Positions 3,720 to 31,222 of a stretch of 64,000 nucleotides of DNA are shown here, piece after piece (positions within the stretch are counted from its first letter, which is position 1; the number at the start of each line of letters is the position of its first letter). The notes below the pieces were generated by a model. It searched no databases and was not told the DNA's origin. It saw only the letters and a program-made list of their open reading frames with translations. Source of the stretch: an uncultured Methanosarcinales archaeon (GTDB lineage: Archaea > Nanobdellota > Nanobdellia > Woesearchaeales > GW2011-AR15); assembly GCA_964512765.1 (NCBI GenBank), contig CAZEKF010000004.1, forward strand, positions 15,739 to 79,738, written 5' to 3'. A program made the translations under genes and the position numbers.

Positions 3720-3809
3720 ACCAAAAAATAAAGTTGTAGTGGTTTATTAAATTTATTGCTTTGATTTTCCAAAACCTATATAAACCATATTGCCTCTTTT
3801 TTGTAATTA

Positions 3810-4325
3810 ATGAAAAAGAGGTCGCAGATTTCTGTAGAGTTTGTTATGATAATTGCTATTGGTCTTATTATTATTTTGCCAGGAATTTATTTGTTTAGAA
3901 ATTATGTGTTTGAATCAAACGACGCATTATTAAAATCAAGAGTAACAGAAATTTCTACACAAATATTGTCGAAAGCCAGGGTAATGTATTATTACGGCCC
4001 ACCTTCTAAAACAACGTATGAAATAGAAATGCCACCACAAGTTAATAATATGTATCTTTTATCAGTTCCTGATAACAATGAATACTATCTTGTATTCAAT
4101 ATTTTAGCTTCTACAGGACCAGAAGATCTTTATTATGAATCAGAAATACCGTTGAAAGCACAGGAAAACATTACATGTAACATAGCATGTCAAGGGAACT
4201 GTGATTGTTTTCCAGCAAGATATTTTTCAAAAGGCGTTAAAAATTATAAAATTGAAGCAACACAAAATTGTAATTTGGAAGAATATTGTATTATCATTGG
4301 AGAAATATCTCCTGAACTAGTTTAA
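3810..4325 (+). CDS. Class III signal peptide pilin-like protein
   Basis: MKKRS/QISVEFVMIIAIG prepilin motif; C-terminal cysteines. Confidence 0.8.
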   Translation: MKKRSQISVEFVMIIAIGLIIILPGIYLFRNYVFESNDALLKSRVTEISTQILSKARVMYYYGPPSKTTYEIEMPPQVNNMYLLSVPDNNEYYLVFNILASTGPEDLYYESEIPLKAQENITCNIACQGNCDCFPARYFSKGVKNYKIEATQNCNLEEYCIIIGEISPELV

Positions 4326-4336
4326 GGTGTGATTAT

Positions 4337-4888
4337 TTGAAAAAATCTCAGGTTATAAGCATGGATTTTATCATGACTTTTATGGTTTACATGTTTGTTT
4401 TATCAATTTTTTTCATTGGCTTGAAAAGTAATTATTCAGATTCGTCAAATTTAAACATTAACGCAGAATTATTGTTTAACAGACTTAGTAACGTATATGA
4501 CCCAGACTACAGTTTTTTATCAGCATCAAAAGTTAATGTAGCAAGATTCGATGTTTTATTAAATAATTATGATCCAAATAAAGGTTATGAACTTTTTTTT
4601 AAAGATTTTGAAACCACAACGTATAGCAAAATTGATTATTGTGTTTATCTTGAAAATAATACAGAGATAATTAAAAATTTTGCAGCATGGTCTGAGCATA
4701 GAACAATAGAAGAGTATTCAGTTTTTATTAATAGTGCCAAATGTGGATCTAACAAGAATCTTGTATATCCAGAAGCAGTTGTTAGTTGTCAAGATCCAAG
4801 ATCAGATTCATTAATACTATCAAAACCTGTGTTATTTGGTCAGGACATAATAAAACTTAGCGTGGTTATATGCGCAGAAAAAAAATGA
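4337..4888 (+). CDS. Class III signal peptide pilin-like protein
   Basis: TTG start after AGGTG RBS; KKS/QVISMDF plus hydrophobic helix. Confidence 0.75.
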   Translation: MKKSQVISMDFIMTFMVYMFVLSIFFIGLKSNYSDSSNLNINAELLFNRLSNVYDPDYSFLSASKVNVARFDVLLNNYDPNKGYELFFKDFETTTYSKIDYCVYLENNTEIIKNFAAWSEHRTIEEYSVFINSAKCGSNKNLVYPEAVVSCQDPRSDSLILSKPVLFGQDIIKLSVVICAEKK

Positions 4889-5412
4889 AGAAAAAAGCAT
4901 ATATTTTTTTAATGGACGGAATCTTCGCAGTGGTTATTCTTATAATAGGTTTTATTATCATTTCTTCGAATAAACCAGGGATGCAGACAACAGCATCGCT
5001 GGAACAGGTGTCTGAGAACTTAGTGGATATATTTTCAACAGTAAAAATTAATGATTTATGCACAAATTGTCATTGTTCAAATAAAAAGCTTACCGAGTAC
5101 TGTAACCAAGGTCATATAAGAAATAAGGATCAAACAATATTCGATTATATTGGCGAGTTATATTATATTAATAATAAGGAAAAAGCAAGAGACATGTTTC
5201 AAAACATTACAGAAGATTTGTATAGGAAAGATTTGTTTGGTGTAGAACTCAAAATTGATGATGAAATTGTTTTCTCTACAAATAAAGATGGTGTAACGAA
5301 AAACCTCATTTCACGAAAAAAATTAATTTTTGGGTTTTATGAGGTATCAAGTACAGGCATTATAAATTTTTGGGGGCCATTTAAAGTAGAGGTAAATATG
5401 TGGGAAAAATGA
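4885..5412 (+). CDS. Minor pilin-like protein
   Basis: MKKKA/YIFLMDG plus hydrophobic helix; ATGA overlap with upstream stop. Confidence 0.7.
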   Translation: MKKKAYIFLMDGIFAVVILIIGFIIISSNKPGMQTTASLEQVSENLVDIFSTVKINDLCTNCHCSNKKLTEYCNQGHIRNKDQTIFDYIGELYYINNKEKARDMFQNITEDLYRKDLFGVELKIDDEIVFSTNKDGVTKNLISRKKLIFGFYEVSSTGIINFWGPFKVEVNMWEK

Positions 5413-6224
5413 AAAATTTAAAGAAAATGAAGAAAGGCATTTTTTTTTCAGTGATAAGTGTTTTTATAATCATACTTTTCGTTGCAATCACAGAACTTTC
5501 TACAAATTTCCAGCTTGAACAATTCGAACTTGAAACTACACGGACTCGACTTAAACTATTAAACTCATTAGTACGTGATATGGAAGACACATATTTTGAA
5601 AAAATGATTTATATTTCAACAAAAAACGCTTTGATTGGTTTGTCAAAATATTACTCAGAAACAAACTTTGACCAAAATAGGTTACAAAAGAAGTTAGGAT
5701 TTGTGTTAGATGATGTAATTTATAATAATACCTTAATTGATAAGAACGGTAATGAAATAGATCTATCGTTATATGTTGATCCTGATTATACGATCTTTGG
5801 TGTTATTGGAGATATAAAAGAAGTGTTTGATAGCTTAGGTTTGGAAGTTAGTGAGTTCACGGTTAGTATAGACGAAGACGAGATAGTACAAGTAGATCCT
5901 TGGACAATTGAAGTTACTGGTCAGCTTGTTTATAATTTTAAAGATAAGTTTAACACTGTTTCATGGAAAGGTAGAACAACTAAAAAGGTTAATGTTAGTG
6001 TTATAGGTATAACGTCTTTTGATTATGAATTATCAGAAAAGTCTAACACAGGCATAATTACCAGTTCATGGGTCAAGGATGAAGGTCCGTATTATACTGA
6101 ACCATCGGTAGTAGATAAGTTAAGTTTACCGTCACCTTCACCAACTCAAGGTAAAGGTATATGTTCTCCGAACTTTAATGTTAATGGTCGTTCATGTAGT
6201 GACGACCTTGCGAGTGATCATTAA
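5409..6224 (+). CDS. Minor pilin-like protein
   Basis: KKG/IFFSVIS plus hydrophobic helix; overlaps upstream stop; exact start (5409 or 5427) uncertain. Confidence 0.7.
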   Translation: MKNLKKMKKGIFFSVISVFIIILFVAITELSTNFQLEQFELETTRTRLKLLNSLVRDMEDTYFEKMIYISTKNALIGLSKYYSETNFDQNRLQKKLGFVLDDVIYNNTLIDKNGNEIDLSLYVDPDYTIFGVIGDIKEVFDSLGLEVSEFTVSIDEDEIVQVDPWTIEVTGQLVYNFKDKFNTVSWKGRTTKKVNVSVIGITSFDYELSEKSNTGIITSSWVKDEGPYYTEPSVVDKLSLPSPSPTQGKGICSPNFNVNGRSCSDDLASDH

Positions 6225-6225
6225 A

Positions 6226-7143
6226 ATGAAAAAACACGATTTATCAAGAAAAGCGCAAATATCGTTTGAGTTCATTATAATATTTAGTTTAGTATTTACT
6301 GCATTATTAGGGTTTATTTATATTATCAATGAAAGAATGTCTGAACTTTCAGAAAAACAAGAACAGTTAGTAATGAAAAGTCTTGCAAATAATATATTTA
6401 ACGAAGTTGTTTTAGCATCATCGGTTAATAATAATTACATTCGTAACTTTGATGTTCCTGTAAAGTTACTCGGTAGAGATTATAAAATGTTTATTGATAA
6501 CAATGAACTTTCTATTCAAATAATAGACGGTCCAGATTATTTCGCACCGTTTCCTGTTGAAGTTAAAGGAACATTTATTGAAAATATTGATGTTAATACT
6601 ACAAGACATTGTATAACAAAAAATAAAGTTGACGGTATTAGAATTTCAAAAAACCAAGCAAGTTTAGAAACAGAGGTTTTGGAAGTGACCAAAGGTGACG
6701 AGTTTATTGTGTATGTCAGCCTTTTCTGTATAGTTGATTTAAAGAGTATAAGAGTTACAATTAAATATGACCCTGTACAGTTAGAAATAATAAAACAAGA
6801 GTCAAAACCTGTTGTTACTTCTGACCCAGAGTTTGAAAATAGAGTTCCACTTTTTGACCATTATAGCTTAATTTATGACTATTCAAACACTGGCGGAGAA
6901 TATATTAACGACGTTACAGGAAGGTACACGTATGGATTTTTAGGAAGAGAGTGTAAATCTGGCTATGGTGACGTGATTAAACTCGTTTTCAAAGTGAAAG
7001 ATACAGCAGATATTGGAATAACGTCAATCGAATTTGATGATACAATGGATGAAACTATTAGAATGCTAGACTGTGCAACTAACCAGTTCACAAAAGAAGG
7101 ATTGCCAGATTCAAAGAACAACGTTAATATTAATATAGTTTAA
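6226..7143 (+). CDS. Class III signal peptide pilin-like protein with C-terminal cohesin-like domain
   Basis: RKA/QISFEFIII prepilin motif; C-terminal EVTKGDEFIVYVSL...IKYDPVQLEII...GDVIKLVFKVK...SIEF pattern resembles cohesin. Confidence 0.75.
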   Translation: MKKHDLSRKAQISFEFIIIFSLVFTALLGFIYIINERMSELSEKQEQLVMKSLANNIFNEVVLASSVNNNYIRNFDVPVKLLGRDYKMFIDNNELSIQIIDGPDYFAPFPVEVKGTFIENIDVNTTRHCITKNKVDGIRISKNQASLETEVLEVTKGDEFIVYVSLFCIVDLKSIRVTIKYDPVQLEIIKQESKPVVTSDPEFENRVPLFDHYSLIYDYSNTGGEYINDVTGRYTYGFLGRECKSGYGDVIKLVFKVKDTADIGITSIEFDDTMDETIRMLDCATNQFTKEGLPDSKNNVNINIV

Positions 7144-7203
7144 AGACGAAAGGTTTATATAGGTTGAAACAGGTTTGAATTAAATAGTTAAGAGGGTATG
7201 TAA

Positions 7204-10200
7204 ATGAAAAAGATTGATTTTATTGTTCTAATATTAGTTGTTTCAATGTTTATAGTGATCGACCAGGATGTTGATGCAGGTATATGTTGTTGTAGTGCAT
7301 CAGAATGTGATGGGAGTGCTATTGACTATTATGATCCAGGAAGCAGTGTACCAGGGAATAAAATTTATGACGATGCAGGAACTGGAGCAAGATACTATTT
7401 TGAACCATCTGACGAAGAAGAGGATGGAGGTGGAGGCGGTGGTTATGTTTGTTCACCGAGTTGTTCAGGTAATGAATGTGGTGATAATGGTTGTGGTGGA
7501 AGTTGTGGAAGCTGCGATGGTTTAGCATTCACAACCGGTTGTGCAGGTAAAGTATGCGAGTTTCAGGATACTAGCTTAACTGTAGAAGTAGAACCAATAC
7601 CTTGTATTTCAGAATCAAAAAGAGAATTTACAGTTAGAGGTGTTAATAATTACTGTGGTGATCTCGAGATTCTTATTTATTATCCAGAAAGCACTGAATC
7701 TCATCCTATTAGTACAGACACATTTGGTTCATATAATTATGAACACACGTTTGTTATTCCAGACGATGTTGTATTGGCACCTGAGCCAACTATTAAAATT
7801 GAAGTTAAAGGAGACCGTATGTCTAGAAGAGATCCAAAAGATGAAGGTAATTATGATTGTGAAGAAACAATAGACTCATTAAATCTTAACTATAAGAACT
7901 TCTATTACTGTCCAGATTTTAGTGAAGGAGTAACATCTTCTGAATTTGATTATTATGACAAAGAAGAGTATTATAATTTTTATGACAATGATAAGACGTA
8001 TAATTGGGATGAGGACTGTGTAAGTGATGAATCTGTATCATTTTGTTCACCTAACCCAACAGATTGTGTTGATGAAAATGGAGATACGTTTAGTTTTAAA
8101 ACAGCACACGACGCGGATAGTGACGATGAAATTGAAGTATGTCATGCAATAGATAACATTCAAGGAGGTTGGCTTGACCCGGATGTTAATGCAGATGTTT
8201 GTAGTTATGTCTCTGGCGGTGATTGGTTTGATTGCGATCCTTTAATGGGAGGGTGCGATCCTGACAAAGATACGTTTGCACCTGAAGTTGCAGGTTTTTG
8301 TTGCGGTGACGAAAATGATGAAAAAGCTATTTCTACCAAAATTTTGAAAAATTGGGACAATGAGTATGTTAAGAATAACGACGGGTCAGTAAAAGAATAT
8401 ACTGCGTGTTGCGATCCACAAGATAGCTGTGTTGATGAGACAGGCATTTGCAGAGAAGAAAATTATGAATATTGTTTAGCAGTTGGTGGTGTGAAAGGAG
8501 TATGTACTAATACAGGGTCTGGTTATGATTGGGTATTGTACAATGAACCTACTTGTGTAAGCGGTTGTGAAAAATGTGACAATAATCAAGATGCAAAAGT
8601 TGATGACATTGACTTGACAAACATTGAACTTAACTATGAAAGTACAGGTGTATCTTACAACGCAGTTTATGATGTTAACGAAGATAATGTTGTTGATGAA
8701 GCAGACAGAGAATTTTGTCATGATAACTTTTTTGAACAAACCTGTGCATATTGCGGAGATAATTTACTTCAACCAACGTACGAAAGTTGTGACGTTGTAG
8801 ATAGTGTAATTGAATACGCTTGTCCTGAAGATTATTGTTCAGTAGAAAATAATGCGTATTATGAAAGACAAGATACTTGCGATGATTTAATTTGTGAGTG
8901 TTCTTATGAATTTAAAGGATGTGACAAAACTGAATGTCCAGGGACATGTGAAGTAGATGACGATTGTGATTCTGGTTATTTGTGTAATCTTGACACGTGT
9001 AGTTGTTTAATAATAGGTTGTCCTATGGGAACTTCATTGTGCGATGACGGTACATGTAAACCCGACTGTAACTTTGTTGGTTGTGATGGTAGCCCGGATG
9101 ACGTATGTTCACCTGGCGAAGGATGCGCATGTATAGACTGTCTAGGCCAGCAAAGTATTTGTAATGATGGAGGAGTATGCGGCCCAGACGGATTATGCGG
9201 TTGTCCTGAAGGTACTGCATTATGTAACGATGGTACTTGTAGCTCAGATTGTGTTATAACTGATGATGATTTTGCTGCTTGTTTACTTGATGATAATTTA
9301 GTAACTCCTTTTATTAAAAATCCAAGCTTTGAAACAGATGAAGCATGGAATTTCAGAGATTTTGAAAGAATAACGGAAAAATCTAAAACAGGATCTTATT
9401 CAGTAAAATCTGTAGATTACTTGGGAGCTGCAGAACAACAAGAAATAAACGTGCAACCTTTAACAAAATATCAATTAAGTGGTTACATATTTAACGAATT
9501 AGAAAAAGGTAACGCATACCTTGATTTAAAGGACATACCTGAAGAGTGTCAAGCTATATCAACAAAAAAAGACCAATGGGAATTAGTGTCTTGTGAATTT
9601 ACAACATCGTTAAATACAAATAGTGTAGTTATTAGATTGGTAACTGACCATACACAGGAAGAAGACCCAGTAGGTGTAGCATATTTTGATGATATTGAAT
9701 TATTACCTTTTGAAAGTGTTGTTGTTAAGGATTATTCAGGCGAAGGTAATGATGGAACATTGTATGGACCTACTCTTGTGGATGGTAAGTATGGTAAGGC
9801 TTATGAATTTGATGGGGTTAATGATTACATAATAACGCCAAACTCAGCAGTTCTAGAAGATATTTCAGAAGGTTCTTATACTTATGAAGCATGGTATTAT
9901 CCAAAAGAAATCCCTCCGGATATTCAATATAATAATTATCATTTTATCTTATGTAAACAAGGAGAACACAATCCTTTGCTATATCATAGAGAAACACATT
10001 TTAATTTTCATATGTGGAATGATAATCACCAATCTTTTGGAATTAATTCAGGTGCATCTAATCTGGTTAATAACTGGTATCATGTTGTAGGAACATTTGA
10101 TATTAATTCTAAGGAAGTAAATCTTTATGTAAATGGTATTCATCAAGGAACTGAAATCTTTACAGGAACACCAAAAGATCATGGACAAAATCCAATTAAG

Positions 10201-13200
10201 ATTGGTATGTGCAATGGCTTTGGTCAGAACTGGGCAGGCCCTGCAGAAGGTATTATCGACGAAGTAAAAATCTATAGCAGAGCTTTATCGCCTGGTGAAA
10301 TCACAAACAGTTACCAAGGAATTCCTGTTTCTGATGCTGGTTTAGAATTATACTATCCGTTTGAAGAACTTGAATACACGTTAGATTATTCCGGTAATGG
10401 AAATACAGGAGAAGTTAACGGTGCAACACTTATAGATGGTAAATATGGCAAAGGATACAATTTTAATGGAATTAATAATTATATTGAAGTATTCAATTCA
10501 TCCACTTTTGATTTAGGATCATTACAAGGACTTAGAACAGATGCAACATTTAGCATGTGGGTTAAAACAGATTGTAATGAATGCGGAATAATGTCCATCT
10601 TGGCTGGACACGAAGGAAATAGAGGTCATGATAGACACATTTTTACTAACAATGGAAAAATTGACGGTAGAATCTGGCACGGAGACAATGGTGGATTTGA
10701 GATTGGTGACAAGGATATTGGAGACGATTCCTGGCATTTAATTACTATGACAATTGAAGAAGAAATTGGAAGTAAATTTTTTATAGATGGTGTCGAAGAT
10801 ACTACAGTCACCAAAGACCAGTCAGATTTTAACTGGAGTGACAGATTATGGTTAGGTTTTTCAAACGACGCAGATAATAATTATTTCAATGGTATTATGG
10901 ACGAGTTCAGGGTTTATAACAGAGTATTAAATCAGCAAGAAATTTCTAACCTCTACCAAGGAAATTCTGTTTTAGATAATGGATTAGTTCTGTATTATCC
11001 GTTTGACGAATCTTTAGATAACAACACACAACCGAACAGCATTTGTGAATATGGTGAAGGTTGTGCATGCAGTGACTGTGAAGACCAACAAGACGGCTGT
11101 ATATTTGGTTTAGCATGTGATGATGGTTTATGCGCGTGCGTACCTACACAGGAATATGAAACAATAATTGACGACGGTATTGATAATGACTGTGACGGGT
11201 TGATAGACGAACCGTATTTTGACGATCCTGGAGTTTATATCTGGGAAGCTAACTGTGATTATTACATGTGCGTATACTCGCATGATTCAAACGAATATAC
11301 AACAACTGGTGTGTTGTCAGGGTCAGGTTTCTCGCAAATCAGAGAACATGACTGGGAAAATGACGATAGTTACACATACGATAATGTTAACAATCTTATA
11401 TCTTTCACATCTGAACTAAAAAATGATCTGGACTGTTTAATCTTTAAAACAGACAGCATGGTTACATATGATTTGAACTTAAGCAAAGATAATGTTTATT
11501 TAACACAAAGAAAGATTAATCCATTGGAAAATCCGTTTGATTTCTCTAGTCCTGAATGTAACAGTTACTGTGAATATCCAAACTTTTGCGGAACTACATT
11601 ATTATTAATAGGAAGGGTTGACTGTGACTATGAACAGTGTATATTTGACTGTGGCGGGTACTGGGTTGATGTTGAGTCAGGTTATGACTTTTTACCTGAA
11701 GGTGTTGCAAGAAACCCTGGTGATTATTGTTCAGTTTGTTCAAATGACATGGTTTGTTCAAATTATACAAACCTATACTCGTGCCATTTTGATCCTTGTG
11801 AAGCTTCACTAACATATTTCGGATGTAACTGGGACGAAGCATCAGATACCTGTGAAGACGCGTTTAGTCCATGTATGCCAGGAACTACATTATGCAAAGA
11901 CGGAAGTTGCAGTCAGGACTGTGAAGATACAGACACTGCAAACGCAGGTTGTATAGGATATCCCGATAATGTTTGCGAACTAGGCGAAGGATGTGCGTGC
12001 AGTGATTGTGACGACGACCAGGCAAGTTGTACAAACGGCGCTATTTGCGGTGATAATGAACGGTGCGGATGTCCAGAAGATACAACCTTGTGTAATGATA
12101 AAACATGCGATGAAACTTGTGAAGATAATGGCGGTAAAACAGGATGTATTGGTAGTCCAAATAATAAATGCGAGTTTGGCGAAGGTTGTGCGTGTGAAGA
12201 TTGTTTACTTTTACAAGACAGTTGTGTTGAAGGCATAGTTTGTGAAATCGGAGAAGAAGTTTGTAGTAAATTTGGCATTGAAGAAAAATGTCCAGCAGGA
12301 ACAACATTGTGCAACGACGGTACCTGTGACAATGATTGTAATAATAATGGTGGTAAACGGGAATGTTACGGTGACCCGGACGACATTTGTCAGTACGGTG
12401 AAGGATGTGCATGTGAAGATTGTGATGAAAAACGCGATAATTGTGTAGATAGGGTATATTGTAATTATGATACTAAACTGTGTGAAGGAGAAGATTACCC
12501 AGACGATGACGATGATGATGACGACGATGATGAAGAACAGTGTATAGATAAAGACAGTGATAATTATTATAAAATTGATAAAGATTGTATAGGTAGCAAT
12601 GATTGTAATGATAGAGATAGGTCTGTGAACCCTCGTGCCAACGAAATCTGTAATAATAATAAAGATGATAACTGTGATGGTTACATTGATGAAGATTGTG
12701 ATTCGTCTCTTAAGGTTAAACTCGGGTCAATACCTGAAGTACGTGTTTTAGATAAATTTGAACTTGAAATTACTGTTAATAATAATTTAAACAAAGAAAT
12801 TGAACAGGTTGAACTAAACGTGGACGTGCCAACAGGAATTAAACCAAATAAACAAACTCAAAAAATATATAGTATAGATTCAAAAGATTTTGAAAAAGTT
12901 ACATATGAACTGTTTGTAAAAGACTTCAAACAAGATAAGGCAGATATTACTTTAAACATTGAAATTCCTGAAGAAGTTGATATTTCAGAAGAGTTATCAG
13001 TGAACATTGACATTCCTAAATTCCTTGTAGCAGCTGACCCTGAAGATGTTGATGAAAAATGTGTTGATTTGTACTACGTTATTAATGATAACTCATTACA
13101 AAATGAAGTTGATCTTGAACTTAATGTAATAGATCCTAACGCATTGCTCAGTAAAACAGTTGTTCTTGATTATCTAAGATCCATAAAAACTAAAGGAATA

Positions 13201-13380
13201 GTTATTGAAGAACTGATTTCAAACCCGTATTGTTTAGAACAAGGTAATGACTACGAAATATTTGGTTATCTTTACCAGTCAACACCAGGGTTAATTGTTG
13301 ACACTGTTGCTCAAAGCAAAGAATATTTAAAGACTTCGAACAATGTTATTAAAATAACAGTTGATATTAATGATGTTTAA
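7204..13380 (+). CDS. Giant secreted Cys-rich adhesin-like protein (dockerin-like, CBM4/9-like, two LamG domains, MopE-like repeats, C-terminal Ig-like domain)
   Basis: 2058 aa; signal peptide; paired EF-hand-like loops DNNQDAKVDDID and DVNEDNVVDEAD; KNPSFE...YFDDIEL; two LamG units (FDGVNDY...GIIDEVKIYSRALS and FNGINNY...GIMDEFRVYNRVLN); DGIDNDCDGLIDE. Confidence 0.85.
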   Translation: MKKIDFIVLILVVSMFIVIDQDVDAGICCCSASECDGSAIDYYDPGSSVPGNKIYDDAGTGARYYFEPSDEEEDGGGGGGYVCSPSCSGNECGDNGCGGSCGSCDGLAFTTGCAGKVCEFQDTSLTVEVEPIPCISESKREFTVRGVNNYCGDLEILIYYPESTESHPISTDTFGSYNYEHTFVIPDDVVLAPEPTIKIEVKGDRMSRRDPKDEGNYDCEETIDSLNLNYKNFYYCPDFSEGVTSSEFDYYDKEEYYNFYDNDKTYNWDEDCVSDESVSFCSPNPTDCVDENGDTFSFKTAHDADSDDEIEVCHAIDNIQGGWLDPDVNADVCSYVSGGDWFDCDPLMGGCDPDKDTFAPEVAGFCCGDENDEKAISTKILKNWDNEYVKNNDGSVKEYTACCDPQDSCVDETGICREENYEYCLAVGGVKGVCTNTGSGYDWVLYNEPTCVSGCEKCDNNQDAKVDDIDLTNIELNYESTGVSYNAVYDVNEDNVVDEADREFCHDNFFEQTCAYCGDNLLQPTYESCDVVDSVIEYACPEDYCSVENNAYYERQDTCDDLICECSYEFKGCDKTECPGTCEVDDDCDSGYLCNLDTCSCLIIGCPMGTSLCDDGTCKPDCNFVGCDGSPDDVCSPGEGCACIDCLGQQSICNDGGVCGPDGLCGCPEGTALCNDGTCSSDCVITDDDFAACLLDDNLVTPFIKNPSFETDEAWNFRDFERITEKSKTGSYSVKSVDYLGAAEQQEINVQPLTKYQLSGYIFNELEKGNAYLDLKDIPEECQAISTKKDQWELVSCEFTTSLNTNSVVIRLVTDHTQEEDPVGVAYFDDIELLPFESVVVKDYSGEGNDGTLYGPTLVDGKYGKAYEFDGVNDYIITPNSAVLEDISEGSYTYEAWYYPKEIPPDIQYNNYHFILCKQGEHNPLLYHRETHFNFHMWNDNHQSFGINSGASNLVNNWYHVVGTFDINSKEVNLYVNGIHQGTEIFTGTPKDHGQNPIKIGMCNGFGQNWAGPAEGIIDEVKIYSRALSPGEITNSYQGIPVSDAGLELYYPFEELEYTLDYSGNGNTGEVNGATLIDGKYGKGYNFNGINNYIEVFNSSTFDLGSLQGLRTDATFSMWVKTDCNECGIMSILAGHEGNRGHDRHIFTNNGKIDGRIWHGDNGGFEIGDKDIGDDSWHLITMTIEEEIGSKFFIDGVEDTTVTKDQSDFNWSDRLWLGFSNDADNNYFNGIMDEFRVYNRVLNQQEISNLYQGNSVLDNGLVLYYPFDESLDNNTQPNSICEYGEGCACSDCEDQQDGCIFGLACDDGLCACVPTQEYETIIDDGIDNDCDGLIDEPYFDDPGVYIWEANCDYYMCVYSHDSNEYTTTGVLSGSGFSQIREHDWENDDSYTYDNVNNLISFTSELKNDLDCLIFKTDSMVTYDLNLSKDNVYLTQRKINPLENPFDFSSPECNSYCEYPNFCGTTLLLIGRVDCDYEQCIFDCGGYWVDVESGYDFLPEGVARNPGDYCSVCSNDMVCSNYTNLYSCHFDPCEASLTYFGCNWDEASDTCEDAFSPCMPGTTLCKDGSCSQDCEDTDTANAGCIGYPDNVCELGEGCACSDCDDDQASCTNGAICGDNERCGCPEDTTLCNDKTCDETCEDNGGKTGCIGSPNNKCEFGEGCACEDCLLLQDSCVEGIVCEIGEEVCSKFGIEEKCPAGTTLCNDGTCDNDCNNNGGKRECYGDPDDICQYGEGCACEDCDEKRDNCVDRVYCNYDTKLCEGEDYPDDDDDDDDDDEEQCIDKDSDNYYKIDKDCIGSNDCNDRDRSVNPRANEICNNNKDDNCDGYIDEDCDSSLKVKLGSIPEVRVLDKFELEITVNNNLNKEIEQVELNVDVPTGIKPNKQTQKIYSIDSKDFEKVTYELFVKDFKQDKADITLNIEIPEEVDISEELSVNIDIPKFLVAADPEDVDEKCVDLYYVINDNSLQNEVDLELNVIDPNALLSKTVVLDYLRSIKTKGIVIEELISNPYCLEQGNDYEIFGYLYQSTPGLIVDTVAQSKEYLKTSNNVIKITVDINDV
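9019..12483 (+). repeat. Five copies of a Cys-rich protein repeat (CPxGTxLCxDGxCxxDC...PxxxCExGEGCACxDC)
   Basis: Units begin CPMGTSLC, CPEGTALC, CMPGTTLC, CPEDTTLC, CPAGTTLC; each has GEGCAC. Confidence 0.85.
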
Positions 13381-13407
13381 TGTTTATATAAATGAGGTGT
13401 GTGTAAA

Positions 13408-14361
13408 ATGATTATATTTGGTTTAAACTTACCCTTACCAGAATTGTTTCTATTGTTAATAATAGTCTTTTTTGTGTTTTTAGTAATGATTTTAGCCCAG
13501 TTGCAAAAATTGCAAAAAATGACAGCTGAAGAACGTAAAGAAATTGAAGAACTAGAAACACTTGTTCAGGAAGAGAAAAAAGATCTTGAGCAGCTCAAAG
13601 CATTTGAAAAAATGGAATCATACGATTTGGTTAAGTTTGAAAAAGAATTGTTTGAACTTGAAGAAGAAACAGACACAATTTATCTGAGAAAACTCGCACC
13701 TAATCTGTTCAAGCTACAAAATTACGTGCTATGGGCATTGAAAAAAGGTTTAAGTCCTAAACAAATCAAGGAAAATTTGTTGTCAAAAGGTTGGAAAGAT
13801 ACTAAGTTTATAGAGATGGTTATTGATGATACATTGAAATATCAAGGATACTATAAAAATAGGAAAGGTAAAGTTGAATCTCCTTCAATTAAAATTGAAG
13901 AAACCACCAAGATTATACAACCTGTAAAAGTTGTGAAAGTTGAGAAACCTGAAGTTAAAAAAACAGTTGAAAGAGCGCCGCCACATCCTAAGGCAAGAAA
14001 AGTCATAACAGCAAAACCAAGACCAAGTGATGACTTGAGTAAAATAGAGAGTGAACTAACTGCTTTGCAAAAAGATCTTACTAAAGAAAAGAAAGTAACA
14101 ACTAGAAAAACAAAGTCAAAGAAAAAAGCAACAACAAAGAAAAAAACAGGAGTCAAAGCTAAAAAAACTGTTGTAAGAAGTAGTGTAAAGAAAAGAATGG
14201 TTTTAGGTACAAAAGGCGGTAATAAATATCATAAACCAACCTGTATAGTGATGAAAAAAGTGCCAAAAGATAAAGTTGTTACATTCAAAAACAATGAAGA
14301 AGCACTTAAAAAAGGTTACAAGCCTTGTACTGTATGTGCAGTGGAATCAAGTCATAACTAA
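13408..14361 (+). CDS. Membrane-anchored coiled-coil protein with Lys-rich linker and C-terminal Ada-like metal-binding domain
   Basis: N-terminal TM helix; C-terminal GTKGGNKYHKPTC...EALKKGYKPCTVC; GAGGTG RBS before ATG 13408. Confidence 0.75.
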   Translation: MIIFGLNLPLPELFLLLIIVFFVFLVMILAQLQKLQKMTAEERKEIEELETLVQEEKKDLEQLKAFEKMESYDLVKFEKELFELEEETDTIYLRKLAPNLFKLQNYVLWALKKGLSPKQIKENLLSKGWKDTKFIEMVIDDTLKYQGYYKNRKGKVESPSIKIEETTKIIQPVKVVKVEKPEVKKTVERAPPHPKARKVITAKPRPSDDLSKIESELTALQKDLTKEKKVTTRKTKSKKKATTKKKTGVKAKKTVVRSSVKKRMVLGTKGGNKYHKPTCIVMKKVPKDKVVTFKNNEEALKKGYKPCTVCAVESSHN

Positions 14362-24952: not shown

Positions 24953-25699
24953 ATGGGAGACCCAAAGAAACTAAGGAAAAAGTATTCAACACCCAGCCAT
25001 CCTTGGCAAAAGCAAAGGATTGATGAAGAAAGGGTTTTAATGAGAGAGTACGGGTTTAAAAATAAAGCTGAGTTATGGAAATTAAATTCTAAATTAAGAA
25101 AATATAAAACACAGGTTAAAAACCTTATCTCGAAACATGACGAACATGCTGAAAAACAAAAGGTTGAATTAATAAAAAGAGTACAAAAATTAAATTTAAT
25201 TGATGAAAAAGCTGTTCTTGAAGATATTCTTTCATTAACATTAAAAGATATTTGTGAAAGACGTTTACAAACAATTGTTCTGAAGAAAGGATTGGCAAGG
25301 TCTATTAAACAAGCTAGACAGTTTATCACTCATGAACATATTGTTATAGGTGACCAGAAAATTACGTCTCCGTCGTACATTGTTAGTTCAGGTGAAGAAA
25401 TTATTGTTAAGTTTGCAGATAATTCAGAGTTTAGATCTGAAGATCATCCTGAAAGACTGGCTGAAAAACCTAAAGTAACAAAGAAAAAAGAACCTGAACC
25501 AGTTGAAGAAGAAGTTTCTGAAGAACCTATTGCAGAGAAAGAAGCTCCAGTAGAAGAACCAAAAGAAGAGCCAGTTGAAGAAGAAAAACCAGCTGTACCT
25601 GAACCAGCAGAAGAGAAAAAAGAAGAAGAACCAGCTGCTGAAGAAAAGAAAGAAGAAGAAGAACCAAAAGAAGAGAAGAAGGTTGAAGAAGAAAAATGA
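24953..25699 (+). CDS. rps4: 30S ribosomal protein S4 with long acidic C-terminal tail
   Basis: [31 protein letters not shown]. Confidence 0.97.
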
Positions 25700-26145
25700 G
25701 AAATTCTAGAGGAGGTAGAGGACCAAGAAGAGATCATAGAGCAAGAGTACCTAGAGGAGATATTAGATGGGGCATTTGCCACATATATTCTTCATATAAT
25801 AATACAATTGTGCATATTACAGACATAACAGGTAGTGAAACTATTGCGTTATCATCAGGCGGTCAAATTGTTAAAGCAGACAGGTTAGAAAGTTCGCCAA
25901 CAGCTGCAATGGCAGCATCAAAAAAGGTTGGGGAAGCAGCTCTTGAAAAAGGTATTCGAGGGTTACATGTTAAAATAAAAGCACCTGGCGGTCATAACGG
26001 TCCGAATAACCCAGGACCCGGTGCACAGGCAGCAGTAAGAGCGTTATCAAGAATGGGTTTAAGAATTGGTATAATTGAAGATGTTACACCTGTTCCTCAC
26101 GACGGTTGCAGGAAAAAGGGTGGAAAAAGAGGTCGACGTGTATAA
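25696..26145 (+). CDS. rps11: 30S ribosomal protein S11
   Basis: [39 protein letters not shown]. Confidence 0.97.
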
Positions 26146-26147
26146 AA

Positions 26148-26921
26148 ATGGTAAGCTTTGAAAAAATATCAAATAAAGATAATAAAATGACGTTTTTATT
26201 AAAGAAAAGTACACCTGCTTATGCAAATGCATTAAGAAGAATTATGCTTACTGAAGTTCCAGTGATGGCAATTGAAGATATTGAGTTTAGAAAAAACAGT
26301 TCTGCATTGTACGATGAAGTATTAGCTCACAGGCTTGGTTTAATGCCATTAACAACAGACTTGAAATCGTACGAGCTTCCAAAATCTCAAGAAGATGTTG
26401 ACAATAAAAAAGCTAAATGTACGCTACAACTAACACTTAAAGAAAAAGGTCCAAAAACTGTTTATGCGTCAGACATGAAGTCTAAAGATCCCAAAGTTAA
26501 GCCAGTATATCCAAAAACACCAATTGTGAAATTGTTAAAAGATCAAGAATTGGAACTTGTTGCAACTGCAATATTAGGAAAAGGCACTGAGCATGTTAAA
26601 TGGTCGCCAGGACATATATGGTATAATTATAATGCAAAAATTACAGTAAATAAATCAAAAGATGTTGAACAGTTTAAAGAATTATATCCTCCGCAAGTGT
26701 TTAATAAAAAAGGAGAGATTGACGAGAAATTAATTTTGGAAAATAACTTAGTGGATGCAGTCGCTCATGTTAATGAAGACCTTGTTAAAGTTGAATATGA
26801 TGACACAGAATTTATATTTCAAGTAGAATCATGGGGACAGTTGTCTCCTAAAGAAATTGTAGTTACAGGATTAGGAATATTTAATGATAAACTTGACGAG
26901 CTAGGTAAACTCCTCAAATAA
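26148..26921 (+). CDS. rpoD: DNA-directed RNA polymerase subunit D (Rpo3)
   Basis: ANALRRIMLTEVP, NSSALYDEVLAHRLGL, HVKWSP, VESWGQL. Confidence 0.95.
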   Translation: MVSFEKISNKDNKMTFLLKKSTPAYANALRRIMLTEVPVMAIEDIEFRKNSSALYDEVLAHRLGLMPLTTDLKSYELPKSQEDVDNKKAKCTLQLTLKEKGPKTVYASDMKSKDPKVKPVYPKTPIVKLLKDQELELVATAILGKGTEHVKWSPGHIWYNYNAKITVNKSKDVEQFKELYPPQVFNKKGEIDEKLILENNLVDAVAHVNEDLVKVEYDDTEFIFQVESWGQLSPKEIVVTGLGIFNDKLDELGKLLK

Positions 26922-26940
26922 CTCTCGCATAAATTATCAT

Positions 26941-27077
26941 GCGGGGGTGGCAGAGCCTGGTCAATCGAAAATCGAAGATTTTCGAAGCGTCAAAAACCTT
27001 CGGTTTCAGACCAAATGCGCAAGGTTGAGGGCCTTGTCCCAAAAGTGGGTGCGCGTGTTCAAATCACGTCCCCCGCA
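26941..27077 (+). tRNA. tRNA-Leu(GAG) with 50-nt intron in the D-loop (26965-27014)
   Basis: GCGGGGG/CCCCCGC acceptor, CAAGG-TTGAGGG-CCTTG, long variable arm, GCGTG-TTCAAAT-CACGT; GGTC/GACC helix flanked by AA|N bulges. Confidence 0.9.
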
Positions 27078-27094
27078 TTATATAAAATAAAAAA

Positions 27095-27442
27095 ATGAAG
27101 AACCAACAATTAACAACATTGGTAACAGAACTAAAGAAAACATCAATTGAAAATGATGTTAAACTTTGGAAAAGGATCGCGTTAGAGTTAGAAGGACCTA
27201 CAAGCAAAAGACGAGTTGTTAATTTATCAAGAATAAACAGGTATTGTAAAGATAATGATGTTGTTGTCGTTCCCGGAAAAGTATTATCAATGGGTTCACT
27301 GGATAAAAAATTAACAATCGCAGCTTACAACTTTTCAGGCCAAGCACTTGATAAAATTAAAAATGCAGGTAGTAAAGCAATTACAATTTATGATTTAGTT
27401 AAGAAAAATCCAAAAGCAAGTAAAGTGAGGATAATAGGATGA
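27095..27442 (+). CDS. rpl18e: 50S ribosomal protein L18e
   Basis: VNLSRINR, VVVPGKVL, AYNFS. Confidence 0.95.
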   Translation: MKNQQLTTLVTELKKTSIENDVKLWKRIALELEGPTSKRRVVNLSRINRYCKDNDVVVVPGKVLSMGSLDKKLTIAAYNFSGQALDKIKNAGSKAITIYDLVKKNPKASKVRIIG

Positions 27443-27861
27443 TTATTATAGATGCAACAGATTTAATTGTTGGAAGAATTGGTACTTATGCAGCTAAACA
27501 AGCATTATTAGGGGAGGAAATCAGGATCATAAACAGTGAAAAAGCTGTTATTTCAGGTAGAAAAGAAAATACATTTGAAAAATATTTAACAATAAAAGCA
27601 ATGGGTACACCGAGAAAAGGACCTTTTTTGCACAGGATGCCTGAACGATTGTTAAGAAGATCTATCAGAGGCATGTTATCTCATAAAAAGCCAAGAGGCA
27701 AAGAAGCTTACAAAAGAATATTATGTTATCAAGGCATTCCGGATGAGTTTAAAGATAAAAAATCAATTACAATCAAAGATGCTAACAGATCAAAATTGCC
27801 AAATTTAAAATATGTAAATTTAAAAGATGTATCAAAAAGATTAGGTGCTAATGTTGGGTAA
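27439..27861 (+). CDS. rpl13: 50S ribosomal protein L13
   Basis: IDATDLIVGR, NSEKAVISG, GPF...RGML. Confidence 0.95.
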   Translation: MIIIDATDLIVGRIGTYAAKQALLGEEIRIINSEKAVISGRKENTFEKYLTIKAMGTPRKGPFLHRMPERLLRRSIRGMLSHKKPRGKEAYKRILCYQGIPDEFKDKKSITIKDANRSKLPNLKYVNLKDVSKRLGANVG

Positions 27862-28264
27862 GAAAAAATCAAAATCAATTGTTGTGTCAGGAAAAAGAAA
27901 AACTGCTATTGCACGTGCTACATTAAACCAAGGCACTGGAAAAGTTAAAATTAACAATGTTCCTCTGGACTTGTATGTTCCAAAAGTGTATAAAATGAGG
28001 ATTGAAGAACCTTTAATTCTTGCAGGAGATGTAAGAAATAATGTTGACATTTCTGTTAATGTTAACGGCGGCGGGTCAATGAGCCAGAGCGACGCATCCA
28101 GAACTGCAATTGCAAGAGCACTTGCAACACATGATCCTAAACTAAAACCTAGGTTCTTAAATTATGACAGGCATTTACTTGTCGCAGATGTTAGACTAAA
28201 AGAAACTCATAAGCCAAACAGGCATGGTAGTGCTAGGTCAAAGAAGCAAAAATCTTATAGATAG
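27851..28264 (+). CDS. rps9: 30S ribosomal protein S9
   Basis: GKRKTAIARA, GGGSMSQ, YDRHLLVADVR, ARSKKQKSYR. Confidence 0.95.
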   Translation: MLGKKKSKSIVVSGKRKTAIARATLNQGTGKVKINNVPLDLYVPKVYKMRIEEPLILAGDVRNNVDISVNVNGGGSMSQSDASRTAIARALATHDPKLKPRFLNYDRHLLVADVRLKETHKPNRHGSARSKKQKSYR

Positions 28265-28335
28265 TTTTATTTTTTCTTTATATTCTATTCATAGACCGAA
28301 ACAAATTAAAACTCATATTTAATTCTAGATGAGTT

Positions 28336-29259
28336 ATGTATGCTATAGAAGTTAAAAATGTAAACAAAATGTTTAAGCATAAAGATAGAGATATTTATGC
28401 TCTTCAGGATGTTTCGTTCAATGTAAACAAAGGAGAAATATTTGGTTTTTTAGGACCAAATGGAGCAGGTAAAACTACTTTGATAAACATTTTAACTACA
28501 ATTCTAAACCAAGATTCAGGTAGTGTAAAAATTGAAGGATTGGATGTTTCAAAAAATACGTATAAAGTTTTAGAAATAATAAATACATCAAGTGGCAGTG
28601 CAATCTGTCATCATTTACTAAAAGTCAAAGAAATCTTAAAGTTTTATTCAAGGTTATATAGCACATCCGAGAAAAAGCGAATAAAAAGAGTCAAAGAAAT
28701 AATTAAATCATTGGAAATTGAAGATTTGCTTGAAACAAAGTTTGGTGTGTTGTCAAGCGGCCAGAAAATGCGGACAATACTTGCAAAAGCATTATTGAAC
28801 TATCCTAAAGTATTGTTGTTAGATGAACCAACAATTGGTATGGATCCTGACATTGCAATAAAAACCCGAAAGTTAATTAGAAAAATCAATGAAAAAGAAA
28901 AATGCACTATTTTGTTAACAAGCCATTACATGCACGAGGTTGAAGAATTATGTGAAAGAATAGCGTTTATAAACCATGGCAAGATAATTGATATTGGAGA
29001 TATTAAAAAACTAAAAGATAAGAGATTCTTTGGTTTTAAAGTTATAATTAAAGTTAAGGAAATTATCAATAAACAGTTTTTACTTAAAAATAAATTTGAA
29101 GTTAAAGGAAATACCCTACTTAAAAGGGTGCAGACAGACGATGAAGTTAGTAATATAATGGAGCTATTAAGTAAAAACGGTTTTGTTGTGTTATACATTG
29201 AGTCAAAATCACCAACATTAGAAGATTATTTTATAAAAATGAGTAACATGAAAAAATGA
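28336..29259 (+). CDS. ABC-2 exporter ATP-binding protein
   Basis: GPNGAGKTT, LSSGQ, LLLDEPT, TSH. Confidence 0.9.
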   Translation: MYAIEVKNVNKMFKHKDRDIYALQDVSFNVNKGEIFGFLGPNGAGKTTLINILTTILNQDSGSVKIEGLDVSKNTYKVLEIINTSSGSAICHHLLKVKEILKFYSRLYSTSEKKRIKRVKEIIKSLEIEDLLETKFGVLSSGQKMRTILAKALLNYPKVLLLDEPTIGMDPDIAIKTRKLIRKINEKEKCTILLTSHYMHEVEELCERIAFINHGKIIDIGDIKKLKDKRFFGFKVIIKVKEIINKQFLLKNKFEVKGNTLLKRVQTDDEVSNIMELLSKNGFVVLYIESKSPTLEDYFIKMSNMKK

Positions 29260-30038
29260 ACTTAAGAAGAATACTTGCAGTTATTGAACGTGATCTAAGA
29301 TTAACACTAAGATTAAAATGGCGTTTAGTTGAAACATTATATTTCCCAATTACAAACGTTATTTTATGGGGCTTTTTCACGATCTGGACCCAGAATCTAG
29401 CAATTGAAGCAGCATTTACATTACTTGCGATTAACATGTTCTGGACATTTGCATACCAGTCTCAATCAGGTAGTAACCAACAAATGATGGAAGATAGATG
29501 GACACAAAGTTATCCGCAGATATTAACAACACCATTAAGACCTACTGAATATTTGATTGGTAAGACTTTTTTTGGAGTAGTGTTTACAGGTATTAGTTTC
29601 CTAATTACATTAATATTGGCACATACTGTGTTTGATTATACAATTTTTATTGAACATTTTAATTTGTTTTTGATATTGTCAGTAATAACAATTATTGCTT
29701 CAGTTAGCCTTACAATACTTGTTGCTTCAATTATCAATGTACTAGGAGTGCATTATGCGTTTTTATCATGGTCAGCAATGCAGCTTGTTGTACTGTTTTC
29801 AGCTCCATTTTTTCCATTAACAATATACCCACCTGTACTTCAGGCTATTTGTAAATTTGTACCTTACACATGGGTGTTTGAGTCAATAAGAATGGTCGGT
29901 GCACAAGGGTTTATCCATACCTCTTTCTTGTTAAAAGGATTAGGCCTTAGTATTCTTTACCTGGCAATTGCTGTTCCAATATATTATTACACAATGGACA
30001 AAGCAAGAAAGTCTGGGAAGTTAGTTAAGATTTGGTAG
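29256..30038 (+). CDS. ABC-2 exporter permease
   Basis: 6 TM; EDR..S...ILTTP..P.EYLIGK; SAPFFP; ATGA overlap with the ATPase. Confidence 0.85.
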   Translation: MNLRRILAVIERDLRLTLRLKWRLVETLYFPITNVILWGFFTIWTQNLAIEAAFTLLAINMFWTFAYQSQSGSNQQMMEDRWTQSYPQILTTPLRPTEYLIGKTFFGVVFTGISFLITLILAHTVFDYTIFIEHFNLFLILSVITIIASVSLTILVASIINVLGVHYAFLSWSAMQLVVLFSAPFFPLTIYPPVLQAICKFVPYTWVFESIRMVGAQGFIHTSFLLKGLGLSILYLAIAVPIYYYTMDKARKSGKLVKIW

Positions 30039-31199: not shown

Positions 31200-31222
31200 T
31201 ATTCCTTGAATTAAGAAGTGGT

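Follow-up and report, generated by a model that had tools for sequence, protein, structure and literature searches.

The stretch of DNA examined here, 64,000 nucleotides (nt) long and hereafter called the window, comes from contig C4 of a genome of 1.53 Mb (44 contigs, 97% complete, ~31% G+C), and the public-record labels of its relatives—Woesearchaeota, Nanoarchaeia or Nanobdellota—all designate DPANN lineages. Our analysis deals with a run of seven packed genes on the + strand, which either overlap or are separated by gaps of 60 nt or less: five genes for pilin-like proteins, one for a giant protein and one for a membrane protein. At the center of this cluster stand two neighbors. The last of the pilin-like genes (6226–7143) encodes a modular pilin of 305 amino acids (aa) that combines a class III signal, a helix, a β head and a cohesin module, and the gene that follows it (7204–13380) encodes a giant, secreted, cysteine-rich adhesin of 2058 aa with 142 Cys, as judged from the list of open reading frames (ORFs), Pfam matches and hydrophobicity. 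The initial annotation had proposed that a cohesin on the former and a dockerin on the latter tether the adhesin to an archaeal pilus.

The modular pilin starts with MKKHDLSRKA/QISFEF, where the slash marks the cleavage site and the cleavage motif RKA/QISFEFIIIFSLVF was read directly, and contains one hydrophobic segment (aa 9–36). Residues Q11, S13, E15 and F16 are near-invariant among 32 homologue clusters, Q and E occupying positions +1 and +5 of the class III motif, and the Pfam profile Class_IIIsignal (PF04021) scored 20.5 bits, under its cut-off of 23.7. The AlphaFold2 model of the protein (mean predicted local distance difference test, pLDDT, of 90.3; predicted TM-score, pTM, of 0.76) consists of a helix (aa 4–65), a β head (aa 71–149) and a β sandwich (aa 150–305). 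Leader, cleavage motif and hydrophobic helix of an archaeal type IV pilin are thus all present, with a long α-1 helix on a β head in the predicted model, and the protein shows the architecture of a modular type IV pilin: a pilin module (aa 1–149) joined to a cohesin module that is not pilus-specific (aa 150–305).

Several independent searches bear on the identity of the second module, located at 6673–7140 (+ strand). The cohesin profile PF00963 matched aa 155–274 with 25.2 bits against a cut-off of 24.1 (E = 2e-5), rising to 27.4 bits for the isolated domain, and a precomputed PF00963 match is present in 28 of the 32 homologue clusters. When a profile of the 32 sequences was compared with the PDB, cohesins came out on top (best 3l8q_A, E = 5e-6); the 22 PDB sequences at E ≤ 1 comprised 19 cohesin or scaffoldin chains and three THEMIS chains, the latter matching the helix. 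Among the matches listed by Foldseek for the model, all were cohesins, 109 of them at E ≤ 0.001, and the best match of the module was 6kgd_A (E = 9e-9, TMt 0.74). With VIA-align, the top 20 rows were again cohesins (Z 10.5–14.9), including 3l8q_A (Z 14.9, root-mean-square deviation [rmsd] 2.7 over 143 residues) and the non-cellulosomal cohesin 2xdh of Archaeoglobus fulgidus (Z 13.1), while the immunoglobulin (Ig)-like domains of Gram-positive pilins and adhesins ranked below the cohesins, at Z 8–10.5. The module therefore combines an above-cut-off PF00963 match with a β-sandwich (jelly-roll) fold in the predicted structure. Because Pfam, the PDB profile, AlphaFold2, Foldseek and VIA-align agree, the initial annotation of this gene was correct both in the prepilin N-terminus it had assigned to the last gene of the five-gene operon and in the cohesin-like region it had placed at approximately 6658–7140; from sequence and model, the assignment of the product as a type IV pilin carrying a C-terminal cohesin of 155 residues is firm.

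How widely cohesins ride on pilins was assessed at three scales. In the genome itself, PF00963 produced a single match, the cohesin-pilin, and in two genomes of the same family (G067 and G170) the sole match was likewise the pilin. With the cohesin module as query, phmmer returned just 27 matches at E ≤ 0.001 from 1.84 billion representative proteins. Twenty of these were pilin-cohesins, approximately 300 aa long and all aligned at one position, or pieces of such proteins, and seven were long proteins matched in multiple stretches; among the new matches, nine show a class III motif at their start and three are calls truncated at the N-terminus, and a further six had already been part of the family alignment. 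Finally, when 201 evenly sampled genomes of the order were scanned—two of them flagged as unpublished (G132 and G183), with no individual claim depending on either—the full-length cohesin-pilin profile matched end to end in only five genomes from two families, with 125 further genomes matching at the pilin N-terminus only. The idea that other cohesins of the order also sit on pilins was rejected: by regular-expression scan, a class III motif occurs in none of the 32 ORFs with an above-cut-off cohesin in 21 other genomes (seven sub-cut-off rows were omitted from this check), and those ORFs begin with Sec-type signals or transmembrane (TM) anchors instead. Given the sole match in the genome, the few phmmer matches and the zero count among these 32 ORFs, the pilin-borne cohesin is a narrow, coherent subfamily of about 30 sequence clusters.

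Turning to the putative partner, the giant protein contains a dockerin-like module at aa 459–510 (8578–8733, + strand), made up of two Ca-loop-plus-helix repeats with conserved cysteines on the flanks. Dockerin Ca loops follow a consensus of 12 residues with D or N at positions 1, 3, 5, 9 and 12, followed by a helix. Both loops of the giant, DNNQDAKVDDID (aa 459–470) and DVNEDNVVDEAD (aa 490–501), located at 8578–8706 with starts 31 residues apart, fit the pattern D-x-N-x-D-x3-D-x2-D and carry D or N at all five positions. Dockerin_1 was the sole family at E < 0.01 on the 91- and 100-aa segments of the giant that contain the loops, scoring 17.6–19.1 bits against a cut-off of 22.9, and it was the top family in all ten segments from proteins encoded next to cohesin-pilins, exceeding its cut-off in five. 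A profile built from seven orthologous segments, which omits the three strongest canonical ones, retrieved dockerins as its top 12 PDB matches (E = 8e-5 to 7e-3, spanning both repeats), and a ten-sequence profile reached E = 1e-6. Moreover, a local hidden Markov model (HMM) placed the module at the same position in all 17 homologues of the giant's N-terminal 700 aa, a count that is partly circular.

The AlphaFold2 model of the dockerin segment has a mean pLDDT of 81.4, with ten-residue blocks over residues 11–70 averaging 78–96, and its helices (residues 29–41 and 60–70) come after the loops. Dockerins filled the first rows of the Foldseek output for this model, with TMt values of up to 0.75 and an rmsd of ~2 Å. 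In VIA-align, the top 16 rows were dockerin-containing chains at Z 7.0–2.9, ten of them at Z ≥ 5, with the first unrelated row also at Z 2.9 and hence level with the lowest dockerin row; the best structural match was the dockerin of Clostridium perfringens NagH (2ozn_B, Z 7.0, rmsd 1.9 over 53 residues). Segment cysteines C12, C16, C19, C66, C78 and C90 are invariant across the seven orthologues. We conclude, from sequence and predicted structure, that the module is a divergent, internal, cysteine-framed dockerin—an assignment that holds firmly for the orthologue family and for the predicted fold, and that stays sub-threshold for the copy in the window alone.

Apart from the dockerin, the giant is distinguished by its composition (142 Cys, 20% Asp+Glu) and by a single hydrophobic segment, its N-terminal signal (aa 1–28), with the signal peptide itself placed at aa 1–26; the C-terminus has none. 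The earlier reading of a protein lacking a TM anchor is borne out, and export would be by the Sec pathway. Two Laminin_G_3 modules are encoded at 9811–10986 (+ strand; Pfam E = 3e-48, 164 bits, in two stretches), the first at aa 870–1033 and the second at about aa 1059–1261, with approximate bounds; the latter aligns with the LamG region of a protein from a related locus (L023, discussed below), and phmmer of the whole giant against the PDB gave LamG-like matches only. A weak CBM_4_9-like carbohydrate-binding module (CBM) lies at aa 704–814 (9313–9645, + strand), with an E-value of 0.0027 and 18.5 bits against a cut-off of 25.9. Orthologues of the giant measure 1242–1854 aa and align at aa 78–700 and 1278–2058, and the LamG/CBM block (aa ~700–1278) is absent from the L009–L016 orthologues. 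This block is an insertion specific to the copy in the window and not a family feature, which qualifies the LamG/CBM adhesin of the initial annotation. The C-terminal 234 aa (12676–13377, + strand) are possibly a CARDB-like Ig fold: the nearest ESM Atlas clusters are named 'CARDB domain-containing protein' (score 0.93, with recognition below threshold), Pfam gave no match to this region, and we treat the resemblance as a lead only. Additionally, a short GATGACGACGAT tandem repeat at 12505–12533 translates into a stretch of some ten Asp residues of the giant.

The conservation of the gene pair was examined in related loci from 16 species; the order of the pilin-like genes recurs in related loci. 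A dockerin protein is encoded at most two genes downstream of the cohesin-pilin in nine of the 16 (L009, L010, L011, L012, L015, L016, L019, L021 and L023), in addition to the window, with the contigs of L014 and L017 ending too early to judge and the remaining five (L013, L018, L020, L022 and L024) showing none within 10 kb. Within 10 kb, a local HMM of the dockerin core detected no further dockerin in L013, L014, L017, L018, L020, L022 and L024. In the genome of L013, an orthologue of the giant lies on another contig (42% identity, E = 5e-124). The dockerin-bearing neighbors fall into three architectures: orthologues of the giant; the proteins of L019 and L021, which are unrelated to the giant and resemble it in the dockerin only (whole-protein Dockerin_1 scores of 70 and 35.7 bits, respectively); and a rearranged LamG/Kazal/PPC protein in L023, with a dockerin near residue 1340 (24.3 bits) and LamG in a different order from that of the giant. 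A phylogenetic tree of the cohesin-pilins splits into two well-supported halves (100/99), with dockerin neighbors in both, and L018, L020, L022 and L024, four loci with no such neighbor, group as one clade (100/99).

A further indication comes from P0071, a protein of 726 aa that unites pilin, cohesin, four cysteine-rich DUF4215 repeats and Laminin_G_3 in one chain, and which is presumed to be the L010 pilin (L010:9992–12181, a 729-aa frame); the neighbor of the cohesin-pilin in L010 is devoid of LamG. A lectin module can accordingly reside on either the pilin (P0071) or the neighbor (the window), which provides support of the Rosetta-stone type for a shared structure. As far as gene content and neighborhood can tell, comparative support for a functional coupling of cohesin-pilin and dockerin protein is strong. 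We also observed that in L022, two genes downstream of a distant cohesin-pilin, a 1322-aa protein (L022:7254–11222) shows several Hint/intein-type and AXH-like matches (Hint E = 3e-35).

Across the 201-genome sample, cohesins were found in 27 genomes and dockerins in 42; 16 genomes carry both domains, 11 a cohesin alone, 26 a dockerin alone and 148 neither of the two. Dockerins therefore occur in 16 of the 27 genomes with a cohesin and in 26 of the 174 others, counts that do not amount to a statistical test because the sampled genomes are kin and not independent. The genome of the window and G067 were counted as 'cohesin only' since their dockerins are sub-threshold. In eight other genomes of the order, match coordinates place a cohesin and a dockerin less than 5 kb apart on one strand. 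These pairs lie at G119:C8, G200:C4, G088:C79 and C72, G188:C131, G071:C140, G002:C62, G057:C22 and G042:C6, and the dockerin is often found 200–400 nt upstream of a cohesin preceded by a Sec signal. The arrangement suggests, at the level of sequence, that chains of neighbor-encoded cohesin–dockerin partners exist in these archaea.

The genome of the window encodes further dockerin-like modules, several of them on proteins with carbohydrate-active domains. In an ORF at C14:44374–47745 (L025), a Pel9A-like β-helix is joined by a GH5 cellulase domain (E = 1e-22) and, at the C-terminus, by a dockerin (19.4 bits); the C14 dockerin is the best PF00404 match of the genome at 22.4 bits, or 29.9 together with neighboring matches. 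No signal peptide is recognizable in the C14 ORFs, of which the upstream one appears truncated. At C6:1–1904 (L026), a protein that runs off the end of the contig combines a signal peptide with an N-terminal pair of dockerin-like loops and a CBM60 domain (E = 5e-16), and a GHL15 protein at C38:1191–3546 (L027) displays one dockerin-like loop. By tetranucleotide composition, C14 (r 0.995) and C6 (r 0.998) match the genome well, and the 4.8-kb contig C38 does so more weakly (r 0.945). The dockerins of the GH5, GHL15 and CBM60 proteins are at or under the cut-off, and two of the ORFs look incomplete. Since dockerin-like modules occur on these proteins too, the giant may not be the sole cargo of the cohesin-pilin.

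In a six-frame regular-expression scan, 24 of the 2870 ORFs of at least 80 aa in the genome contained at least one dockerin-like loop, and eight ORFs had a pair of loops 22–45 residues apart, four of these eight being TSP3-type repeats. Several large ORFs on C2, C32 and C37 contain TSP3-type DxDxDGxxDxxD repeats, 15–23 residues apart, which mimic dockerin loops in such a scan. Two adjacent frames at C12:6748–25423 and 25571–31847 (6225 aa and 2092 aa) each contain isolated Ca-loop motifs. A 'dockerin' match on C1 was dropped as a chance hit, as it falls in a 417-aa frame—a cysteine desulfurase by eye—amid ORFs resembling iron–sulfur-cluster assembly genes.

The other four pilin-like genes precede the cohesin-pilin on the + strand, and all five products share a short basic leader followed by one N-terminal hydrophobic segment only. 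Gene 1 (3810–4325, 171 aa) has the leader MKKRS/QISVEF, a hydrophobic segment at aa 4–34 and a weak Class_IIIsignal match (14.1 bits). Gene 2 (4337–4888, 183 aa; leader KKS/QVISMDF), to which a Pfam scan assigned no family, gene 3 (4870–5412, 180 aa; KKKA/YIFLMDG) and gene 4 (5400–6224, 274 aa; KKG/IFFSVIS) were recognized by their leaders, their N-terminal hydrophobic segments and conserved synteny. NCBIfam returned nothing useful for the seven proteins of the locus. The operon does not include a gene for a small major pilin; small class III pilins (136–159 aa) are encoded at C1:27388, C1:27889 and C25:832. Genome-wide, we found two Peptidase_A24 (prepilin peptidase) genes, four T2SSE ATPase matches and six T2SSF matches. 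Three ATPase/platform sets are present, one pair of which lies ~16 kb upstream of the locus on the same contig. The five subunits would be cleaved by a prepilin peptidase and assembled into a filament.

Domain identities, genomic adjacency and the presence of machinery genes are observed features, and a mechanism can be drawn around them. The five pilin-like proteins would be cleaved by an A24 peptidase and would form or prime a type IV filament, with the bulky cohesin-pilin placed, by analogy with bacterial modular pilins, at or near its tip. The giant, exported by Sec and having no anchor of its own, would be caught on this filament through Ca-dependent binding of its internal dockerin to the pilin's cohesin, and its LamG and CBM modules would bind glycans on the surface of a host or particle. 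On the strength of sequence and predicted structure, we consider it probable, with appreciable room for doubt, that the modular cohesin-pilin is a scaffoldin-like dock that captures the giant adhesin via its dockerin.

A number of results weigh against this interpretation. The HMM check gave a split outcome: the cohesin cleared its cut-off, as reported above, and the dockerin of the window did not, since PF00404 scored 17.4–19.1 bits on it against a cut-off of 22.9, and 11.4 bits on larger pieces. In a phmmer search of the PDB with this segment alone, the best match was an unrelated protein (E = 0.49), with the dockerin 2jnk at E = 1.7, and the Foldseek E-values of the dockerin model are not significant (best 0.13). 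As the segment is by itself sub-threshold and retrieves no solved dockerin, the dockerin call rests on its relatives; the dockerin of the initial annotation stands as a family assignment and as a predicted fold, and falls short for the copy in the window taken alone. In addition, whereas dockerins are typically terminal, this one lies inside the protein (aa 459–510 of 2058) within a frame of disulfides. Moreover, solved cohesins and dockerins formed part of the training data of AlphaFold2, and the fold matches of both modules therefore partly echo likeness to known structures. On the genomic side, the clade of L018, L020, L022 and L024 has cohesin-pilins with no dockerin within 10 kb, and PF00404 was absent at E ≤ 0.01 from three of the clade's four genomes (G202, G203 and G204, all of unstated completeness), of which G203 holds a 1635-aa ORF matching aa 260–676 of the giant. 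Dockerin-only (26) and cohesin-only (11) genomes are common in the order, and neither the window nor the operon contains any pilus ATPase or platform gene. Finally, a TATA-box-like TTTATATA (7154–7161, + strand) precedes the giant gene, so that its co-transcription with the pilin genes is not assured.

Going beyond the capture of one adhesin, the cohesin-pilin could serve as a polymerizable, exchangeable scaffoldin—a 'filamentous cellulosome' of an ultra-small archaeon, whose fiber would display the giant LamG/CBM lectin, which grasps a host or particle, together with GH5, GHL15 and CBM60 cargos that open its glycan coat, the cargo being swapped in the course of evolution via the dockerin or by fusion of the lectin to the pilin. 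We regard this extension as speculative and on balance unlikely.

A different reading does without pairing altogether: the cohesin fold would be an adhesive or structural pilin head comparable to the lectin or vWA modules of bacterial modular pilins, the Ca loops of the giant would be structural, and the two genes would be adjacent through a shared role in surface adhesion. The grafting of binding modules onto modular pilins is widespread among bacteria, as laid out in the main text of PMC8179133, and the Ig-like domains of Gram-positive pilins and adhesins, though ranked below the cohesins, still reach Z 8–10.5; the sub-cut-off dockerin of the window, the four cohesin-pilin loci with no dockerin neighbor and the three genomes among them with none detected are likewise what this reading would expect. 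However, cohesins score 4 Z units above other β sandwiches, a common theme alone can hardly explain why three neighbor architectures share nothing but the dockerin, and the pilin's cohesin is the sole one in a genome with several dockerin-like modules. The co-occurrence of both domains in the order (16 of 27 against 26 of 174) points the same way, and we judge the absence of any pairing to be rather improbable.

Alternatively, the five pilin-like proteins might build a short, membrane-rooted pseudopilus or a bindosome-like platform, on which the cohesin keeps dockerin proteins attached to the surface of the cell as an archaeal counterpart of an anchoring scaffoldin. The operon lacks both a small major-pilin gene and an ATPase or platform gene, and a precedent exists in the sugar-binding proteins of Sulfolobus, which carry class III signals and form a surface 'bindosome'. 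The data at hand do not discriminate filament length, the five-gene set resembles the bacterial minor-pilin sets that prime true pili, and the predicted pilin fold suits incorporation into a filament, which leads us to consider the platform quite unlikely. Least convincing, and in our estimation very improbable, is the proposal that the cohesin-pilin docks mainly other dockerin proteins (the GH5 protein with β-helix, the CBM60 and the GHL15 proteins) while the loops of the giant serve another role, the pilus then being a carrier of carbohydrate-active proteins. In its favor, dockerin-like modules do occur on these proteins of C14, C6 and C38, with the best PF00404 match of the genome on C14 and a genome-like tetranucleotide make-up of C14 and C6. 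Against it, the conserved adjacency singles out the giant, no signal peptide is recognizable in the C14 ORFs, one of which appears truncated, C38 fits the genome composition less well, and docking of these proteins is in any case compatible with the giant as an additional cargo.

The remaining features of the locus concern its expression and surroundings. By the archaeal TATA consensus, two elements qualify as TATA-box-like: CTATATAAA at 3775–3785, ~30 nt upstream of the ATG of the first pilin gene, and the TTTATATA element mentioned above, read directly within the 60-nt spacer, 50 nt upstream of the giant gene's ATG. A Shine–Dalgarno-like GAGGGT motif follows at 7192–7197 (+ strand), and the giant gene may, judging from these motifs, have its own promoter. 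In one RNA library, two short contigs map to the giant gene (8471–8708 and 12319–12494) and none to the pilin genes; the uncovered parts prove nothing, and the contigs are at most a weak hint of transcription, as carry-over of DNA is possible. Downstream of the giant gene, a conserved membrane protein of 320 aa (13399–14361, + strand) combines an N-terminal TM segment bearing the motif PLPE[LI]F with a middle part rich in Lys and a C-terminus that resembles the Zn-binding region of Ada (Ada_Zn_binding, 21.8 bits against a cut-off of 23). ORFs whose N-termini resemble that of this protein (M-x-[VI]-FG-x-N-[LM]-PLPE-[IL]) are found downstream of the giant gene in L010, L011, L012, L015 and L016, and directly downstream of the cohesin-pilin in L013; this membrane protein may be a member of the system. 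The locus is flanked by housekeeping genes, e.g., GatD and a class I aminoacyl-tRNA synthetase, and DNA of the window recurs in marine and seawater metagenomes from two studies.

DPANN archaea rely on contact with other cells, and their giant LamG-type proteins and type IV pilus genes often adjoin. We know of no mechanism that joins such proteins to pili, and the cohesin of the pilin together with the dockerin of its neighbor constitutes a concrete candidate for linking adhesin and pilus in these organisms. If correct, this interpretation would extend cohesin–dockerin assembly from multi-cohesin scaffoldins to a polymerizing filament, add an adaptor-type module to the modular-pilin repertoire and represent a natural plug-and-play system for pilus display. 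The small size and coherence of the family, with its ~30 sequence clusters, make both a survey and structural work practical.

A comparison with known systems places the locus closest to two of them. It shares with cohesin–dockerin pairs (cellulosomal types I–III, and non-cellulosomal examples such as C. perfringens NagH/NagJ and the A. fulgidus cohesin) the same cohesin β sandwich, at Z 13–15, as well as a duplicated Ca-loop-plus-helix dockerin, closest to that of NagH (2ozn_B); as in those systems, one cohesin faces several proteins with dockerin or dockerin-like modules, some with glycoside-hydrolase or CBM domains. Unlike the multi-cohesin scaffoldins with their SLH or sortase anchoring, the carrier here is a type IV pilin bearing a single cohesin, so that multivalency, if any, would come from polymerization. 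The dockerin also departs from the usual pairs in being internal and framed by conserved cysteines, as does the cohesin in belonging to a narrow subfamily. A carrier with a single cohesin and without a CBM does not make a cellulosome, and the locus is not classed as one here, although it may work in a cellulosome-like manner if the pilin polymerizes. The literature searched yielded no account of a cohesin carried by a pilin in archaea or DPANN, and NCBI names some members of the family 'cohesin domain-containing protein'.

Bacterial type IVa pili offer another parallel, in that their PilY1/PilC tip adhesins are carried by a minor-pilin complex. As with PilY1/PilC, a large non-pilin adhesin is encoded beside four or five minor pilins, which present the adhesin in the bacterial case; here it is the adjacency that is observed. 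The two differ in that the giant has no sequence or fold relation to PilY1, which docks by a β-propeller, whereas docking here would be by cohesin and dockerin. PilY1/PilC adhesins are also among the topics discussed in the main text of PMC8179133.

Among DPANN archaea, 'Ca. Mancarchaeum acidiphilum' Mia14 encodes LamG jelly-roll proteins beside type IV pilus genes, with a proposed role in host contact (PMC5498576); the portion of that report available to us gives no physical link between LamG proteins and pilus, for which the cohesin–dockerin pair of the window is a candidate. The main text of the archaeal pilus survey by Makarova et al. 2016 (PMC4858521) uses neither 'cohesin' nor 'dockerin'. 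Omnitrophota encode giant proteins with non-cellulosomal dockerins beside small genes with class III signals, in loci resembling type II secretion or type IV pilus systems (PMC10066038; bioRxiv 10.1101/2023.11.21.568195). As described in the available portions of those two sources, they resemble the present case in being ultra-small, probably host-dependent organisms with giant dockerin-bearing surface proteins by class III signal genes, and they differ in being bacteria and in that the same portions describe no cohesin-bearing pilin.

Finally, the bacterial modular pilins described in the main text of PMC8179133 (Raynaud et al. 2021) include PilB and PilC of Streptococcus sanguinis, with a vWA and a concanavalin-A-like lectin module, respectively. 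That set is defined by the bacterial signature IPR012902, and the cohesin-pilin is compared with it by module architecture. The words 'cohesin' and 'archaea' do not appear in its main text, nor 'cohesin' or 'dockerin' in two supplement files, which may not include the full Dataset S1. Both kinds of protein consist of a small pilin module with a C-terminal graft, probably displayed at the tip, and the relative P0071 bears a LamG lectin module just as S. sanguinis PilC bears a lectin. In contrast to the pilins of that main text, the host here is an archaeon, the class III signal reads Q-I-S-x-E-F, and the graft is not the binding module itself: it is an adaptor, a cohesin, which means that the cargo could be exchanged. 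The parts of this system—cohesin, dockerin and archaeal type IV pilin—are known, and their arrangement is nearest to cohesin–dockerin assemblies on the one hand and to modular pilins on the other.

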